A stretch of 64,000 bases of DNA from a phage. Positions 54,484-59,792 of this stretch are shown here, one piece after another (the stretch's first letter is position 1; every line of letters starts with the position of its first letter). The stretch lies in sequence record PZ154896.1; one strand, written 5' to 3'. Position numbers and translations under genes: made by a program. The notes beneath the pieces were generated by a model that saw nothing but the letters and a program-made list of their open reading frames with translations, was not told the origin of the DNA and did no database searches.

Positions 54484-55143
54484 TTAACCTCGATTCATAA
54501 ATGCATTAAATATTTGGTCATCAACAGAAATTTCTAATTCGACTTCAATTGCTTCAGCCTTTTCTTCAGGTGGTAATTCGTATCCACACACTACAATTTT
54601 TTCATCGATATCAAAATACACAGAAGCAATATGATTAATGTTATTTTCGGTTAAGTCTAAATCAACATCAACATCTTTTTGACCTACACTTAAAGGATAA
54701 CTAATACGGGTTATTTTATTATCTTTAACAAAGAGACCACCGACATACTCTGTACTACGTTTGAAGTCTACACGTTTCCGAAATGAAAGATATGATGCAT
54801 CTTTACCGTGAGCTCGGCTCATAGGGCATAATGAATAGCTAGAATATGAGATGTCAAATCCTACACCTTCAATATGAGCCAACGCGTCATGATTAAACCA
54901 ATTATAATCATATGCCAAATCCATTATATTGTAATATGTGAAAGGCACCGGATTAACATCATACGTTGTACCTTTAAAATCTGCCCAGGCAACGATTTCG
55001 TTATCTTTAACAATTACAAAAATTACACCAATATGGTATCCGTTATTATTTTCATTCGGCGTTATATTATAACATTGTGCATTAGGAAATTTACCATATT
55101 TAAATGGCGCATTTTTGTGCATATAATAAATCATATTATTCAC
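54484..55143 (-). CDS. hypothetical protein (219 aa)
   Basis: ORF track. Confidence 0.45.
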   Translation of the reverse strand: MNNMIYYMHKNAPFKYGKFPNAQCYNITPNENNNGYHIGVIFVIVKDNEIVAWADFKGTTYDVNPVPFTYYNIMDLAYDYNWFNHDALAHIEGVGFDISYSSYSLCPMSRAHGKDASYLSFRKRVDFKRSTEYVGGLFVKDNKITRISYPLSVGQKDVDVDLDLTENNINHIASVYFDIDEKIVVCGYELPPEEKAEAIEVELEISVDDQIFNAFMNRG

Positions 55144-55429
55144 CTGTGATTTCGGTTACGATATCTTTGTTATCGAAATTAGGGTCACAATACAAAACAT
55201 AATTGTACTGCATGATACCACCAGATTTAAGTTGTTCAACAACTTTATTAACCATATTAGGACGGTCTCGTTTAGTGATGTTCATGATATCAGAGAAGAT
55301 TTGTTGTTCAACATCTTCTTGATTTGCAGTCATTGACCACTCACAGAGGTCTTTATCATAACCTGCCGTAACTGGAGCTGGTGCACATGATACTGCGAGT
55401 AAGATTGCTGCCAATGATAACTTTTTCAT
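55136..55429 (-). CDS. sp: Spackle periplasmic superinfection-exclusion protein
   Basis: 97 aa with signal peptide; GYDKDLCEWSMTA...KSGGIMQYNYVLYCD matches T4 Sp. Confidence 0.85.
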   Translation of the reverse strand: MKKLSLAAILLAVSCAPAPVTAGYDKDLCEWSMTANQEDVEQQIFSDIMNITKRDRPNMVNKVVEQLKSGGIMQYNYVLYCDPNFDNKDIVTEITGE

Positions 55430-55492: not shown

Positions 55493-55741
55493 TTATTCTT
55501 TTTCGCGAATAATAATTACTTGTTGAGGCTGCTGAGCAGATTTCTTTTCGGCAACGATAGACCAAATTAAAGTTCCAATCCAACCAATCATCGTCCAGTT
55601 AAAGAGTAAAGATACAAAGAAGATTGCTGTTGTGCTTTTTGTGCCACGAATAAGTGCGATTACCCAAGGCAACATGTAAATGACGATTGAACCAATACCT
55701 GCGATTAAAACCGCTACTGAACTAGCTACGAATAATTCCAT
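55493..55741 (-). CDS. small two-TM membrane protein (82 aa; Imm-like size/topology)
   Basis: Two hydrophobic helices; T4 Imm is 83 aa two-TM, but identity cannot be verified. Confidence 0.4.
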   Translation of the reverse strand: MELFVASSVAVLIAGIGSIVIYMLPWVIALIRGTKSTTAIFFVSLLFNWTMIGWIGTLIWSIVAEKKSAQQPQQVIIIREKE

Positions 55742-55802
55742 GTTAATTTCCTCTTGATTTGTTATGTTTATAATATCTTGTTTTAACTTTGGCGTAAACC
55801 AA

Positions 55803-56171
55803 TTAATTAAATTTGTTTAAACGTTCAATACACTGGACGTAGTTATTTGCGATTTGTTTCTGTGTAGGCTCTTTACCGGTTGTTTCAACATAGCGAATGA
55901 ATGCGATTTCAGTAGCCTGTAGACAATGTTCTTTAACGCGCTGTTCTTTTGACATAGCTACGGTATCAGAATCACGATAACGTTGAGCATGGGCATCAGC
56001 TTGAATCATTCGATTACCTACAGTAACCGGGTCTTCCACTTCAACTTTAGGTTGGTCATACTGTTTAACATTCGGATTGTAAATCAGTTGGCCAACGTTA
56101 TTAGGGATAAAGCCGTGGGCACCACATCCGGTTAATCCAAATACCATTGCTAAAGCGATTAATTTTTTCAT
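55803..56171 (-). CDS. predicted lipoprotein (122 aa)
   Basis: Signal peptide with lipobox LTGC. Confidence 0.5.
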   Translation of the reverse strand: MKKLIALAMVFGLTGCGAHGFIPNNVGQLIYNPNVKQYDQPKVEVEDPVTVGNRMIQADAHAQRYRDSDTVAMSKEQRVKEHCLQATEIAFIRYVETTGKEPTQKQIANNYVQCIERLNKFN

Positions 56172-56242
56172 TTCAATTTCCTCTGTAGTTGATAAAAAGA
56201 TAGTAACACAGTATGTGGTGCTTGTAAACAGTTATTTTAAAA

Positions 56243-56431
56243 TTATCGAAAATCTGCTTCGAAAACTTTCTCGTCATTAACAAACGCTTTAACTAATGCG
56301 TTGTTCACTTCAGCAAGTTGTATCGCAACCCACTCGATTTCTTCACGGTCACCTGATAACATGATATCTTTAGTGAACATCTCGCCGCTTTTAAACCAGC
56401 CAATAAAAGTAACTTTAGTTAATTTGCTCAT
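56243..56431 (-). CDS. dmd: Dmd antitoxin (inhibitor of host RnlA/LsoA toxins)
   Basis: Internal ATG with GAGGA RBS gives 62 aa; VTFIGWFKSGEMFTKDIML...AEVNNALVKAFVNDEKV matches T4 Dmd. Confidence 0.8.
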   Translation of the reverse strand: MSKLTKVTFIGWFKSGEMFTKDIMLSGDREEIEWVAIQLAEVNNALVKAFVNDEKVFEADFR

Positions 56432-56745
56432 ATTTCCTCGCAAAATGCCCATTCAGCGTGATAAACTGTAGCACCTTTAGTATTATTCATTTGAACTACG
56501 TCTACCGGAGAAATTACTCGATAGAGACGTGGTTCACCTCCATAAGAGCGTGCTGCTCGTCCTGCATAAATCTTTGCTAAACCGATATCTTCAGTAAAGA
56601 ATACACGATCCAAGTTTTTCTTACGCCCAGTTTCAGACAGAACTCCTGTTTCTTCAGGAGGACAAAGCATGTTTTCGATGTTAGCTGAACTACTTGAACC
56701 GTGATAAAAAATCTTAAATTCTGCTTTACAATCAATGGTTTTCAT
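56428..56745 (-). CDS. small protein with Arr/Tpt1-like ADP-ribosyltransferase signature (105 aa)
   Basis: FYHGSSS...RVFFTED...LYRVISP blocks resemble the rifampin-ADP-ribosyltransferase fold as recalled from memory; stop overlaps dmd start (ATGA). Confidence 0.35.
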   Translation of the reverse strand: MKTIDCKAEFKIFYHGSSSSANIENMLCPPEETGVLSETGRKKNLDRVFFTEDIGLAKIYAGRAARSYGGEPRLYRVISPVDVVQMNNTKGATVYHAEWAFCEEI

Positions 56746-56804
56746 TTTGTTCTCCTCTTGGTTGGTGTAAGTACATCATATCATGCCTAGAGGAAGATGT
56801 AAAC

Positions 56805-56828
56805 CCCGAAAGGAGACCGAAGTCTCCT
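56805..56828 (-). terminator. terminator hairpin after gene 41 (AGGAGAC-ttcg-GTCTCCT)
   Basis: Near-copy of the 790-807/15874-15891 hairpin; T-tract is better on plus strand so may act bidirectionally. Confidence 0.55.
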
Positions 56829-56833
56829 TTTTA

Positions 56834-58276
56834 TTAAAATTTTAACTCATTGGCTAAGCTATCTAGGTCAGCACGTGTTGTTTTGGCTTTACCTACGCGT
56901 TCCGTACGATTCACCTCTGCCTGACGCATCTGAGCACCTGCGTTTTCATTTACTGTGTTAGGTGTGTTCATGCCTTCTTGCTCAATCTCAACCCATTTCT
57001 GGTTGCCTTTACGTACACCCATCAGGAATTTATTCCACTTATTCTTATCACCGTATCGTGATTTGATTTGTTTGATAAGTTGTTGTTCAGCTTGTGCAAG
57101 TTCTTCGGTTTCAATTACGGCCAACATGAAATCTGCCGTTGCTGGTAAACCTGCTGATTCTGCAATATCGCTCATGTTCATATCCGAAGCATCCCATGCT
57201 GCACGTCCTACTTGAGCGGCAGTCCATAGAACTGTTTCAGATTCTACTGCTAATGCACGAAGTTCTTCTGCGATAGCTTTAACTAATGTGTAGCTATTTT
57301 CAGTGTAAACTCTGATACGGCAAGACCCACAAATACCTAAGTAATCAACCATGATTACAGATGGCACAAAGTTCTTCTTGAGTTTCAATTCATTAAGCAA
57401 TGCACGGAATGTATTAGCATTAGCTCCGCCAGTAGGATACTGTTTAACTACTAAACGTCCTAATGTGGATTTTGAACGCCATTTTTCCATCTTGGCTTTA
57501 TATTCAGCATAAGATACGTTACCATCATCAATATCATCGAGCGATACGTCAAGCATGTTTGCATCTATACGCTTAGCACAAACTTCTTCAGCCATTTCCA
57601 TAGAAATATAAAGAACATTATGACCTGTTTGAAGATAATCTGCAGCAAGTGAACAAAGGCCTAAAGATTTACCGACGTTAACACCGGCCATTAAAACGTT
57701 CAGTGTACCAGTTTCAGCACCACCTTTAGTGATTTTATTCAGAATGTTTAATTTGAACGGGACCTTACGTGCTTTGTTCAGATAAGAAAGCCAGCGGGCT
57801 TCATAGTCTTCCATCCAGTCATGTCCAACATAACTATCAAACGAAATTGAAAGTGCTTGACGCATAATATCAGGAATAGCTCCTACATCAGGCATTTTCT
57901 TGTTACGTTGTTCTGGAGGTAGTTCAGCATTAGACTGAATCTCAATGATTTTGGATGTAGCATTATACATCGCTTTTTGCTGGACATATTTCTCAGTTTC
58001 TTTAACCAACCATTCGTGGTCTTCAGGAGTATCAGCCAATTTTTCAATTAGGTCTGAAGTTCCTTTATATTCGGCTTCAGTTAAAGAACTGTTATCTAAA
58101 GCCACCTTTAACGCATTGATAGATGGCATTGCATTATATTCGTTAACGTGGCTCTTTATAATTTTAAAGACATTTTTTGCCGGTCCACGCTCAAAATACT
58201 CAGAATCCATATAAGGCCAGACCTTAGAAAAATAAGCCTGGTCATATACTAGATGAGACAAAATAATTTCTACCAC
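56834..58276 (-). CDS. 41: replicative DNA helicase gp41 (DnaB-like)
   Basis: 480 aa; Walker A GVNVGKS; T4 gp41 length. Confidence 0.9.
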   Translation of the reverse strand: MVEIILSHLVYDQAYFSKVWPYMDSEYFERGPAKNVFKIIKSHVNEYNAMPSINALKVALDNSSLTEAEYKGTSDLIEKLADTPEDHEWLVKETEKYVQQKAMYNATSKIIEIQSNAELPPEQRNKKMPDVGAIPDIMRQALSISFDSYVGHDWMEDYEARWLSYLNKARKVPFKLNILNKITKGGAETGTLNVLMAGVNVGKSLGLCSLAADYLQTGHNVLYISMEMAEEVCAKRIDANMLDVSLDDIDDGNVSYAEYKAKMEKWRSKSTLGRLVVKQYPTGGANANTFRALLNELKLKKNFVPSVIMVDYLGICGSCRIRVYTENSYTLVKAIAEELRALAVESETVLWTAAQVGRAAWDASDMNMSDIAESAGLPATADFMLAVIETEELAQAEQQLIKQIKSRYGDKNKWNKFLMGVRKGNQKWVEIEQEGMNTPNTVNENAGAQMRQAEVNRTERVGKAKTTRADLDSLANELKF

Positions 58277-58285
58277 GATAACTCC

Positions 58286-58627
58286 TTAAAAGAATTTAAA
58301 TTTTTTCTTGGTCCGTTCATTAAAAGCTTGTTGTACTTGCATTGTAACACATTTTTCAACATGTGGTGCAAGTTCTGCTTTTCTGTCCTGGTCAAGAACT
58401 GCAAAGTCCATTACGATTTTACCATCAACCCAGTCTAGTTTTGTAATATAGACTATATGATGAGAACCATCTTCAAGCGTAATCAGAATCTCTTGAATGA
58501 CATTTTCCATTGCTGAACGGATAATTTTAAGAGATTCATTAAACACTCGTTCTTTGCGAATGTCTTCCCCTTCCGAAGAAGGGGATTCATCAACGATTTC
58601 TAGATTTAAATCATCGAGATTATTCAT
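58286..58627 (-). CDS. 40: gp40 head vertex assembly chaperone (tentative)
   Basis: Internal ATG overlapping uvsX 3' end; 113 aa; T4 position between uvsX and 41. Confidence 0.5.
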   Translation of the reverse strand: MNNLDDLNLEIVDESPSSEGEDIRKERVFNESLKIIRSAMENVIQEILITLEDGSHHIVYITKLDWVDGKIVMDFAVLDQDRKAELAPHVEKCVTMQVQQAFNERTKKKFKFF

Positions 58628-59792
58628 CGAAATCTTCCATTTCGTCAAGGTCGTTTTCTATATCTGCTGCAGACGGAGCATCAGAAGTTTTAACCGGAAC
58701 TTTAGTTGTTGCTTTGCAATTAATAAGGTCGTTAACAGCATCATCAACTTCTTTAATAGAAGAGATAGCACCTAGTTTATATTTAGTTTCAATTGCATCT
58801 CGGAAAGGTTTGTGTTTAAACAACGGTCCCCAGAATTCTACACAATCAGTAGCTTTAGCACGCCATGATTTTTCTTCACGAATCATTTCGCCTGTTTCTT
58901 CGTCAAGGAATTCGCGAGCATACCACCCGGCTTTAGGCTTAACTACAAAACCAATTTCAGTTGCCATTTCTAACAAGCCACTGAATGGGTCAATACCACC
59001 ATCGAAATTAACCGTGATTGGGAAAGTAGATTTTTCTTTAACGGTGCGAGATTTTTCCGCTTTCAACGTGAAGTCATAACCGGTCAATTCTGTACCTTCT
59101 TTAACCTGACGTTTAGAGATAAAAAATACCGTGTTGGCAGAATAAAGAATACCTGTACCACCACCCATAATCTCTTTAGGATACAATCCGCCGATTTCCA
59201 TTGCTGTATGGTTGATTGCAACACATGGAATATCTTTAATAGTCAGATACGGGGTCACAATGCGGAACAGAGATTTAAGTGCCTTAGCACGAGACATATC
59301 ACCTACAACTTTCTCGTTCAATGCATCTTCGGTTTCTTTCTTAGACGCAGTATTACCGATTGAATCGATAAAGATAATAACTTTATCACCGCGTTCAATC
59401 GCGTCAAGCTGATTAGTCATATCAACTTTAAGTTGTTCGACAGATTGAATCGGAGTATGAACTACACGGTCTAAATCAACACCCATTGAACGAAAATAAG
59501 ATTCTGAAGCACCAAATTCCGAATCATAGAACAAACAAATTGCATCTTTATATTTCTTCATATATGCTGCAACCATGGTCAGTCCAAACAACGTTTTAAA
59601 GTGTTTAGAAGGAGCAGCAAAAATAGTTAAGCCTGATTGCAACCCAGCATTCAGTGCACCACCTAATGCAATATTCAACATCGGAATACGAGTAGGGACT
59701 TCATCACGATTATTAAACAGCTTAGACTTGGTCAAGTCTGCAGTCATTTTAGAAGTAGAAGCTTTAATCAGACGAGATTTTAAATCAGACAT
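58620..59792 (-). CDS. uvsX: UvsX recombinase (RecA-like)
   Basis: 390 aa; RecA-like ATPase core; T4 UvsX length and position. Confidence 0.9.
   Translation of the reverse strand: MSDLKSRLIKASTSKMTADLTKSKLFNNRDEVPTRIPMLNIALGGALNAGLQSGLTIFAAPSKHFKTLFGLTMVAAYMKKYKDAICLFYDSEFGASESYFRSMGVDLDRVVHTPIQSVEQLKVDMTNQLDAIERGDKVIIFIDSIGNTASKKETEDALNEKVVGDMSRAKALKSLFRIVTPYLTIKDIPCVAINHTAMEIGGLYPKEIMGGGTGILYSANTVFFISKRQVKEGTELTGYDFTLKAEKSRTVKEKSTFPITVNFDGGIDPFSGLLEMATEIGFVVKPKAGWYAREFLDEETGEMIREEKSWRAKATDCVEFWGPLFKHKPFRDAIETKYKLGAISSIKEVDDAVNDLINCKATTKVPVKTSDAPSAADIENDLDEMEDFDE

Follow-up and report, generated by a model that had tools for sequence, protein, structure and literature searches.

A predicted minimal ADP-ribosyltransferase-fold protein encoded upstream of dmd in an RB69-like phage: a candidate phage-borne sister family of Arr

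A small open reading frame (ORF) of 105 amino acids (aa), situated on the minus strand directly upstream of the antitoxin gene dmd, was analysed in a stretch of 64,000 nucleotides (nt) of the phage sequence record PZ154896.1, which is termed the window here and whose 105-aa protein supplies all residue numbers. The gene product is probably a stand-alone, minimal protein with the ADP-ribosyltransferase (ART) fold, active as an ART effector and representing a clade of phage proteins that is sister to Arr, the family of rifampin ADP-ribosyltransferases. As far as the sequence signals can tell, its most likely biological role would be to act early, as an effector of host takeover or anti-defence. 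The protein is neither an antibiotic-resistance enzyme nor an obligate partner of Dmd, and it is put forward as a candidate for a distinct, minimal, phage-borne ART family, although a gene of this kind comes as no surprise in a relative of the T-even phages.

The 105-aa ORF (56428-56745, minus strand, ATG start) is a real gene. Its counterparts were recovered by tblastn in 610 phage records at 60-100% identity, the hosts of which include Escherichia, Klebsiella, Acinetobacter, Aeromonas, Enterobacter, Cronobacter, Vibrio and others, and the gene is under strong purifying selection, the pairwise ratio of nonsynonymous to synonymous substitution rates (dN/dS) against its relatives being 0.04-0.13. 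The window comes from a T4-like phage that belongs to the RB69 group (Mosigvirus); its region 56100-57000 matches many Mosigvirus genomes at 97-98% identity, and the orthologue in RB69 is RB69ORF040c. The corresponding PHROGs entry, phrog_2110, is listed with function unknown. In GenBank, the orthologues are mostly labelled as hypothetical, and a few records carry the name 'putative ADP-ribosyl transferase', so that the bare idea of an ART is not new.

The relationship to Arr became visible only once the family had been widened through an exhaustive search of representatives, which yielded 229 representatives, 127 of them at E < 1e-10. The wide-family profile was constructed from a 49-sequence alignment, while all counts of conserved residues given below refer to 104 domains. 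When this profile was run against the PDB with hmmsearch, the hits were Mycobacterium smegmatis Arr (E 3e-4) and Arr-2 (E 0.01), and no other family came below E 1. In the reverse direction, the Pfam model Arr-ms matched 21 of the 49 family members (best E 1.3e-10), and the domains of the representatives scored 27-35 bits on it (cut-off 25 bits), always over model positions 1-67 of 99. Profile-profile alignment by hhalign gave the wide family a probability of 94.9% (E 4.8e-8) against Arr-2, and only 4.8% against E. coli KptA, though the aligned region of the latter was the correct lobe for nicotinamide adenine dinucleotide (NAD+); the narrow T4-like profile A1 reached 46% against Arr-2 and found nothing in the PDB. 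On account of the Arr-ms matches, the PDB profile match and the disparity between the two hhalign probabilities, the family is placed, by sequence, as a sister of Arr, and common ancestry with Arr at the superfamily level is indicated.

That Arr is the closest family by sequence might suggest a true Arr, namely a phage-borne ADP-ribosyltransferase for rifamycin-type antibiotics, but this reading is extremely improbable. The relatives scored 14-26 bits on the NCBIfam model rifampin_ARR, for which the cut-off is 130 bits, and the window protein, which did not match that model, stays below the curated thresholds of both PF12120 and NF033144. The restricted coverage of the Pfam model is mirrored by the alignments to Arr, which end at Arr residue 82-89; a full-length Arr enzyme comprises 135-150 aa including a C-terminal part, which is missing from the 105-aa protein, and at the active site Asp84 has no counterpart and Tyr49 is changed to Phe. 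Moreover, the phages that carry this early gene are strictly lytic, and the family has no match on plasmids and only five loci in 185,579 genomes.

The predicted structure is in keeping with an ART. The AlphaFold model, computed with 38 homologues, has a mean predicted local distance difference test (pLDDT) score of 84.3 and a predicted template modelling (pTM) score of 0.76, and it consists of six strands and two helices, with only 12 residues preceding the first strand and a low-confidence, flexible loop at residues 38-41 (pLDDT <50). Structure comparison of the model gave the following values:

Tpt1 RNA 2'-phosphotransferase: 8.4; 2.0 A / 75 / 21%
Arr rifampin ADP-ribosyltransferase: 8.2; 2.4 A / 85 / 22%
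AcrIF11 anti-CRISPR ART: 6.6
Diphtheria toxin: 6.1

In the model, a split beta-sheet ART core superposes on known ARTs, and the fold is that of the NAD+ lobe of Tpt1/KptA; the predicted shape resembles Arr and the Tpt1 NAD+ lobe to the same degree. A structure search of BFVD returned mostly family members, to which its significant matches belong, and one of these bears the name 'Ms Rifampin ADP-ribosyl transferase'. The preliminary description of this DNA, which had proposed an Arr/Tpt1-like mini-ART from the letters alone, is thus largely borne out as regards the predicted ART fold and the homology to Arr; the protein is neither Arr nor Tpt1 proper. In the comparisons of the kind that it had recommended, the family profile matches Arr and Foldseek against the PDB gave nothing significant. 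DarT had been named there too; close structural or sequence similarity to DarT was not found, and a DarT-like toxin was rejected.

The three blocks that had first drawn attention to the ORF are all present in the protein, and they are listed here together with a near-invariant loop:

56689-56709, minus strand: FYHGSSS, residues 13-19, first strand with His15-Gly16-(Ser/Thr)17; aligns to 'YLHGT' of Arr (His19)
56611-56634, minus strand: ETGRKKNL, residues 38-45, the near-invariant E-x-G-R-K-K-N-L loop; E38/G40/R41 correspond to Arr E40/G42/R43
56587-56604, minus strand: VFFTED, residues 48-53, second strand, with Phe49 in place of Arr Tyr49; aligns to 'HIYIT' of Arr
56506-56526, minus strand: LYRVISP, residues 74-80, third strand (model strand 72-81); aligns to 'IFIVEPEG' of Arr

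Across the 104 domains the invariant or near-invariant positions are H15, G16, T/S17, P29, P30, T33, E38, R41, K42, K43, N44, L45, V48, F49, T51, A57, I59, Y60, A61, R63, A64, G69, G70, G91, V94 and A100, and the window protein retains all of them. The residues assigned to the NAD+ site are included, namely H15, G16, R41, F49, T51, Y60 and G69-G70. H15 and G16 occur in every domain (104/104), and the segment His15-Gly16-(Ser/Thr)17 is predicted from the alignment to contact NAD+. Phe49 is found in 101 domains and replaced by Tyr in the other three, Thr51 is likewise present in 101, and Tyr60 in 103. The E-x-G-R-K-K-N-L loop, in which E38 is kept in 101 domains, R41 in 100, K42 in 78, K43 in 88 and N44 in 86, is predicted to bind phosphate. 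The family would therefore carry the NAD+-binding signature of ARTs, which is composed of His/Arg on strand 1, an aromatic residue with Ser/Thr on strand 2, and a stacking aromatic residue on the helix that follows.

The domain is not confined to small proteins. Longer proteins (150-3900 aa) account for about 60 of the 150 representatives listed out of the 229; they carry the domain internally or at the C-terminus, polyvalent proteins of phages (250-3900 aa) being among them, and it is accompanied by the Pfam partners ART-PolyVal, NUDIX, 2H/Acb1-like phosphoesterase, lambda-type portal, GNAT and Toprim, and further by ddrB-ParB, LPD23, PcfJ and DUF7178. A NUDIX domain follows the Arr-like domain immediately on the C-terminal side in three proteins (P0162, P0207 and P0194), and the 954-aa protein P0168 is arranged as a portal protein, then the Arr-like domain, then a 2H/Acb1-like phosphoesterase. 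These fusions to NUDIX and 2H resemble the KptA-2H and KptA-Nudix associations, which have been connected with RNA repair and ADP-ribose (ADPr) processing (PMC9503650), and the multi-domain proteins as a group correspond to the polyvalent proteins of phages described earlier (PMC5512222). Three IMG/VR contigs of 62-461 kb encode proteins of this polyvalent kind.

The family is essentially restricted to phages. The scan of 185,579 genomes returned its five loci on three phage-sized contigs and in two Patescibacteria metagenome-assembled genomes (MAGs). The two homologues from these MAGs, which belong to the candidate phyla radiation (CPR), are stand-alone proteins of 47-49% identity (L079:3902-4348 and L080) and are the sole loci of the scan that do not look like phage; the L079 homologue adjoins a transposase-like ORF. 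A tblastn search of the PLSDB plasmids with the broad-family domain was empty, and the notion that the domain is common on conjugative plasmids was dropped. Outside the T4-like phages, no recurrent neighbour was seen in the three contexts inspected, namely two stand-alone homologues and one ART-NUDIX fusion.

Several observations weigh against an active Arr-related enzyme. The window protein alone has no match in Pfam (E <= 10), in NCBIfam or, by phmmer, in the PDB, and Foldseek against the PDB stopped at a best E of 0.9. According to PMC13246000, which cites Baysarowich 2008, His19, Tyr49 and Asp84 are necessary for the activity of Arr-ms. This triad is only partly retained, as His19 equals H15, Tyr49 equals F49, and Asp84 lacks a conserved counterpart; in the region of Asp84 the family has L/I/M at position 86, Asn at 87 in 58% and Asp at 88 in 27%, and the window protein reads M86, N87 and N88. 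The position of the canonical ART glutamate, which by strand order is residue 93 at the start of the fifth strand, is occupied by Thr, with Glu in 18 of the 104 domains. No acidic residue is conserved throughout the family, neither the Glu of the H-Y-E or R-S-E type of ART nor the Asp of Arr. Glu103 is invariant in the T4-like subclade only, and even there its conservation is ambiguous because its GAG codon forms part of the dmd ribosome-binding site. All of these residue assignments onto Arr and ART sites are sequence alignments. In the literature searched, moreover, no mention of RB69ORF040c and no characterised orthologue was encountered, be it as an Arr-like phage ART or as a counter-defence ART of Tevenvirinae.

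The variable acid positions lead to a rival, rather unlikely in our estimate, in which the ART fold serves as a non-catalytic binder or sponge that holds NAD+, ADP-ribose or an ADPr-derived signal and so sequesters a signal of host immunity, or blocks a host protein, without any transfer. With 105 aa the protein offers no space for a substrate-recognition domain, which suits such a function, and phages are known to possess small proteins that sequester immune signals derived from ADPr. But the invariant residues are those that active ARTs use for productive NAD+ binding, and the fusion of the domain to NUDIX and 2H, enzymes that handle ADP-ribose products, fits better if a product is formed. 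Absence of the acid is not decisive either, for Tpt1 is fully active without the catalytic Glu (PMC6333775).

If the protein is an active ART effector, as is preferred here, its action may be pictured as follows. The gene would be transcribed right after infection from an early promoter behind gene 41 and translated along with Dmd, as the sequence signals described below suggest, and the product would fold into the predicted six-strand, two-helix ART core. NAD+ would be bound through His15-Gly16-Ser17, Phe49/Thr51 and Tyr60, by homology to Arr and Tpt1, and ADP-ribose would presumably be passed to an acceptor of host or defence origin. The weakest and openly speculative step concerns this acceptor, which might be a nucleophile that bears a phosphate or otherwise activates itself; the end of a nucleic acid or a nucleotide would qualify, by analogy with Tpt1. 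A phosphate-type acceptor appears likelier than a protein side chain, whose modification depends on the catalytic Glu, because no acid is conserved and the E-x-G-R-K-K-N-L loop is near-invariant; the NUDIX and 2H partners, which process ADP-ribose derivatives, suggest the same when taken with the acid loss and the conserved loop. A bolder version, for which our expectation is low, holds that these proteins form a new minimal class of phage ART that modifies a phosphate acceptor, can for that reason dispense with a catalytic acid as Tpt1 does, and disarms defence at the start of infection, while other phages deliver the module ready-made within polyvalent proteins. Under that version ADP-ribose would be attached to the terminus of a nucleic acid, such as those left by host RNase toxins, or to an immune signal of nucleotide type, such as a second messenger that is cyclic or derived from ADPr.

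The kinship with Tpt1 can be pressed further, to a Tpt1-like RNA 2'-phosphotransferase that repairs the cuts made by host RNase toxins and thus complements the block of RnlA/LsoA by Dmd. In Tpt1, His101 and Thr103 bind the 2'-OH of ADP-ribose and arginines cage the diphosphate (PMC6333775), and the His-Gly-Thr/Ser motif and basic residues of the phage family recall this arrangement; the 2H and NUDIX fusions run parallel to those of KptA, and the gene adjoins dmd. Repair of this kind is nevertheless improbable. The RNA lobe of CthTpt1, about 85 aa in length, holds three of the four essential residues, Arg18, His19 and Arg68 (PMC6333775), and it is absent from the window protein, whose 12 residues before the first strand leave it without the two-lobe architecture and the essential tetrad. 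No match to the Tpt1 Pfam family was found among the 49 members scanned, the hhalign probability for E. coli KptA is far below that for Arr, and the linkage to dmd is not conserved.

Every gene of the region from uvsX through adfA is carried by the minus strand, and the 105-aa gene is a member of an accessory cluster together with dmd, imm.1, imm, sp and adfA. The features are listed in the order of transcription:

58620-59792, minus strand: uvsX
58286-58648, minus strand: gene 40
56834-58276, minus strand: gene 41 helicase
56812-56827, minus strand: hairpin GGAGAC-UUCG-GUCUCC directly after the gene 41 stop, read from the sequence
56775-56803, minus strand: early-type sigma-70 promoter-like site TTTACA-17 nt-TATGAT with TG extension, 10/12 consensus positions
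56752-56757, minus strand: strong Shine-Dalgarno sequence of the ART gene, GAGGAG, 6 nt ahead of its ATG, read from the sequence
56428-56745, minus strand: 105-aa mini ART-fold ORF, orthologue of RB69ORF040c, phrog_2110
56428-56431, minus strand: ATGA overlap, with the dmd ATG at 56431-56429 and the ART TGA at 56430-56428, read from the sequence
56243-56431, minus strand: dmd, 62 aa, beginning MSKLTK; Pfam PF17587 at E 2e-19 and phrog_2102 at E 4e-32
56200-56228, minus strand: second promoter-like site TTTACA-17 nt-TACTAT with TG, just after dmd, 9/12 positions
55803-56171, minus strand: imm.1-like lipoprotein (DUF5481, Pfam)
55493-55741, minus strand: imm (Pfam Imm_superinfect)
55136-55429, minus strand: spackle (sp)
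54484-55143, minus strand: adfA (61.2), PF23813 at E 4e-121

Dmd is the antitoxin against RnlA/LsoA. The preliminary description had stated that the stop codon of the ORF overlaps the start of dmd and that the two genes are translationally coupled, and hence co-expressed. The overlap is present and the downstream partner is identified as Dmd by both its Pfam and PHROGs matches; coupling and co-expression follow from the ATGA overlap and the promoter-like site upstream of the pair, so that ART and dmd are likely co-expressed in the window phage, as far as such signals can be read. The first promoter-like site sits in the 88-bp gap from gene 41 to the ART gene, past the UUCG hairpin, and GTTTAC...TAnnAT motifs recur upstream of the ART orthologues and upstream of T4 dmd. 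With the second promoter-like site located just behind dmd, no genes other than ART and dmd lie between such sites. Similar UUCG hairpins stand at the same place, after gene 41, in the relatives L007, L008, L014, L019 and L021, which represent several genera; this GC-rich hairpin with its UUCG tetraloop, ahead of the early promoter-like site, suggests a conserved element of RNA stability or termination. Another terminator-like hairpin, within the ART ORF at 56643-56660, is taken as chance.

The 3' end of the ART gene on the minus strand reads ...GAG GAA ATA TGA, and these terminal codons (56428-56436) also provide the Shine-Dalgarno sequence and start of dmd. The C-terminal Glu-Glu of the T4-like subclade may accordingly be subject to constraint at the level of the protein and of the RNA alike.

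So close an arrangement raises the question of a dedicated Dmd partner, in which both products would come from one two-gene module and be directed at a single host toxin (RnlA/LsoA). The isolation of the pair between two promoter-like sites and the ATGA overlap speak for such a module, as does the recurrence of the arrangement in RB69, whose RB69ORF040c likewise shares 4 nt with dmd, and in a second clade (84-89% identity), in which the two genes abut with a 0-nt gap. It was weighed against 69 loci, 66 of which came from the IMG/VR scan and three from GenBank phage records. A recognisable Dmd follows the ART in about 10 of the 69, only within the Mosigvirus group and that second clade, and elsewhere the downstream gene encodes a lipoprotein, a small membrane protein or an unrelated product. 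In Kanagawavirus-like and related phages, gene 41 still precedes the ART, and the next gene encodes a lipoprotein or is some other small ORF; many Klebsiella and Enterobacter phages, and phages related to them, have the gene of a small membrane protein downstream, which the ART once more overlaps by 4 nt; and phages of Aeromonas, Acinetobacter and others carry the ART at a place that is not beside gene 41. T4, for its part, has gene 41 and then directly dmd, with no ART gene between them.

Since T4 possesses dmd without the ART and most ART loci have no dmd downstream, the two genes are distributed independently, and a dedicated partnership is very improbable. A 4-nt overlap with an unrelated downstream gene is seen in many orthologues, and the ATGA overlap reflects the usual tight packing of T4-like genomes. 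Adjacency to dmd is a lineage-specific packing, which argues for co-expression and not for shared function.

The surroundings of the pair vary among close relatives. RB69 and many phages near it have an additional 124-aa ORF, RB69ORF041c, between gene 41 and the ART gene, and, behind dmd, gp61.4 (tifA). Both are missing from the window phage, which has only the gap 56746-56833 in the former place, and therefore the cluster is a hot spot of gain and loss even at about 98% genome identity. Between dmd and spackle, the window carries the imm and imm.1-like genes (55493-56171, minus strand), as RB69 does; the corresponding slot in T4 holds 61.4 only. The AdfA of the window is anti-DarT factor A, with a His aligned to T4 His165 (NINHIAS) and a Glu at the position of T4 His175; the escape allele R164H is reported to let RB69 AdfA neutralise DarT1 (PMC11825919).

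The T-even phages are the textbook example of viral ADP-ribosylation by virtue of Alt, ModA and ModB. If the 105-aa protein is an ART, it would add to these a further, structurally distinct and much smaller one, which is missing from T4 but conserved in RB69-like phages and in numerous further Straboviridae, among them phages of Klebsiella, Acinetobacter, Aeromonas and Vibrio that are used or proposed for therapy. Its place in a cluster shared with Dmd, Imm, Spackle and AdfA, together with the reuse of the domain in polyvalent proteins, makes it a good candidate for an enzyme of host takeover or counter-defence. With a length of about 95-105 residues, it would rank among the smallest ART enzymes and would inform the minimal requirements for NAD+ activation, and as RB69 carries RB69ORF040c, the hypothesis is directly testable in a model phage. 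What is new here comprises the structural and profile evidence, the family-wide signature, the connection with polyvalent proteins and the independence from dmd, and also the finding that the protein is homologous to Arr and yet lacks defining features of both Arr and Tpt1.

Among known systems, Arr (Pfam PF12120 Arr-ms; PDB 2HW2, 9IAF and 9IBA) shares with the phage family the [FY]-[YL]-H-G-T motif of strand 1, the E-x-G-R loop, [YF]-x-T on strand 2 and a hydrophobic strand 3 ending in P-x-G. The differences consist in the Phe that stands for Tyr49, in the catalytic Asp84 without a conserved equivalent, and in the C-terminal third of Arr, an enzyme of 143-150 aa, which is unmatched beyond about residue 85. 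Furthermore, the phage family has an additional near-invariant K-K-N-L stretch and is encoded by lytic phages and within polyvalent proteins, whereas Arr is found on bacterial chromosomes or integrons. With Tpt1 (PDB 9LD3, C-terminal NAD+ lobe; CthTpt1, PMC6333775), the window protein has in common a size near that of the NAD+ lobe of about 97 aa, a His-x-Thr motif, the lack of a catalytic Glu and conserved basic residues, but it is devoid of the N-terminal winged-helix RNA lobe and hence of three of the four essential tetrad residues.

The remaining comparisons are with ARTs of phages and plasmids. AcrIF11, an anti-CRISPR ART of phages and plasmids (PDB 6KYF; PMC12421852), is structurally less similar than Arr or Tpt1, and its target is the type I-F CRISPR complex, while the window gene has no link to CRISPR. 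T4 Alt, ModA and ModB are phage ARTs that act early on host components, as is well established (PMC5512222 and PMC10468400); they belong to a different ART clade, and none of the three appeared among the sequence or structure matches of the window protein. ART-PolyVal (PF18760; PMC5512222) is another ART family again, with which the window domain shares the same giant phage proteins, sometimes side by side; the version in the window is distinguished from it as a free-standing early product of 105 aa, rather than a part of a packaged polyprotein.

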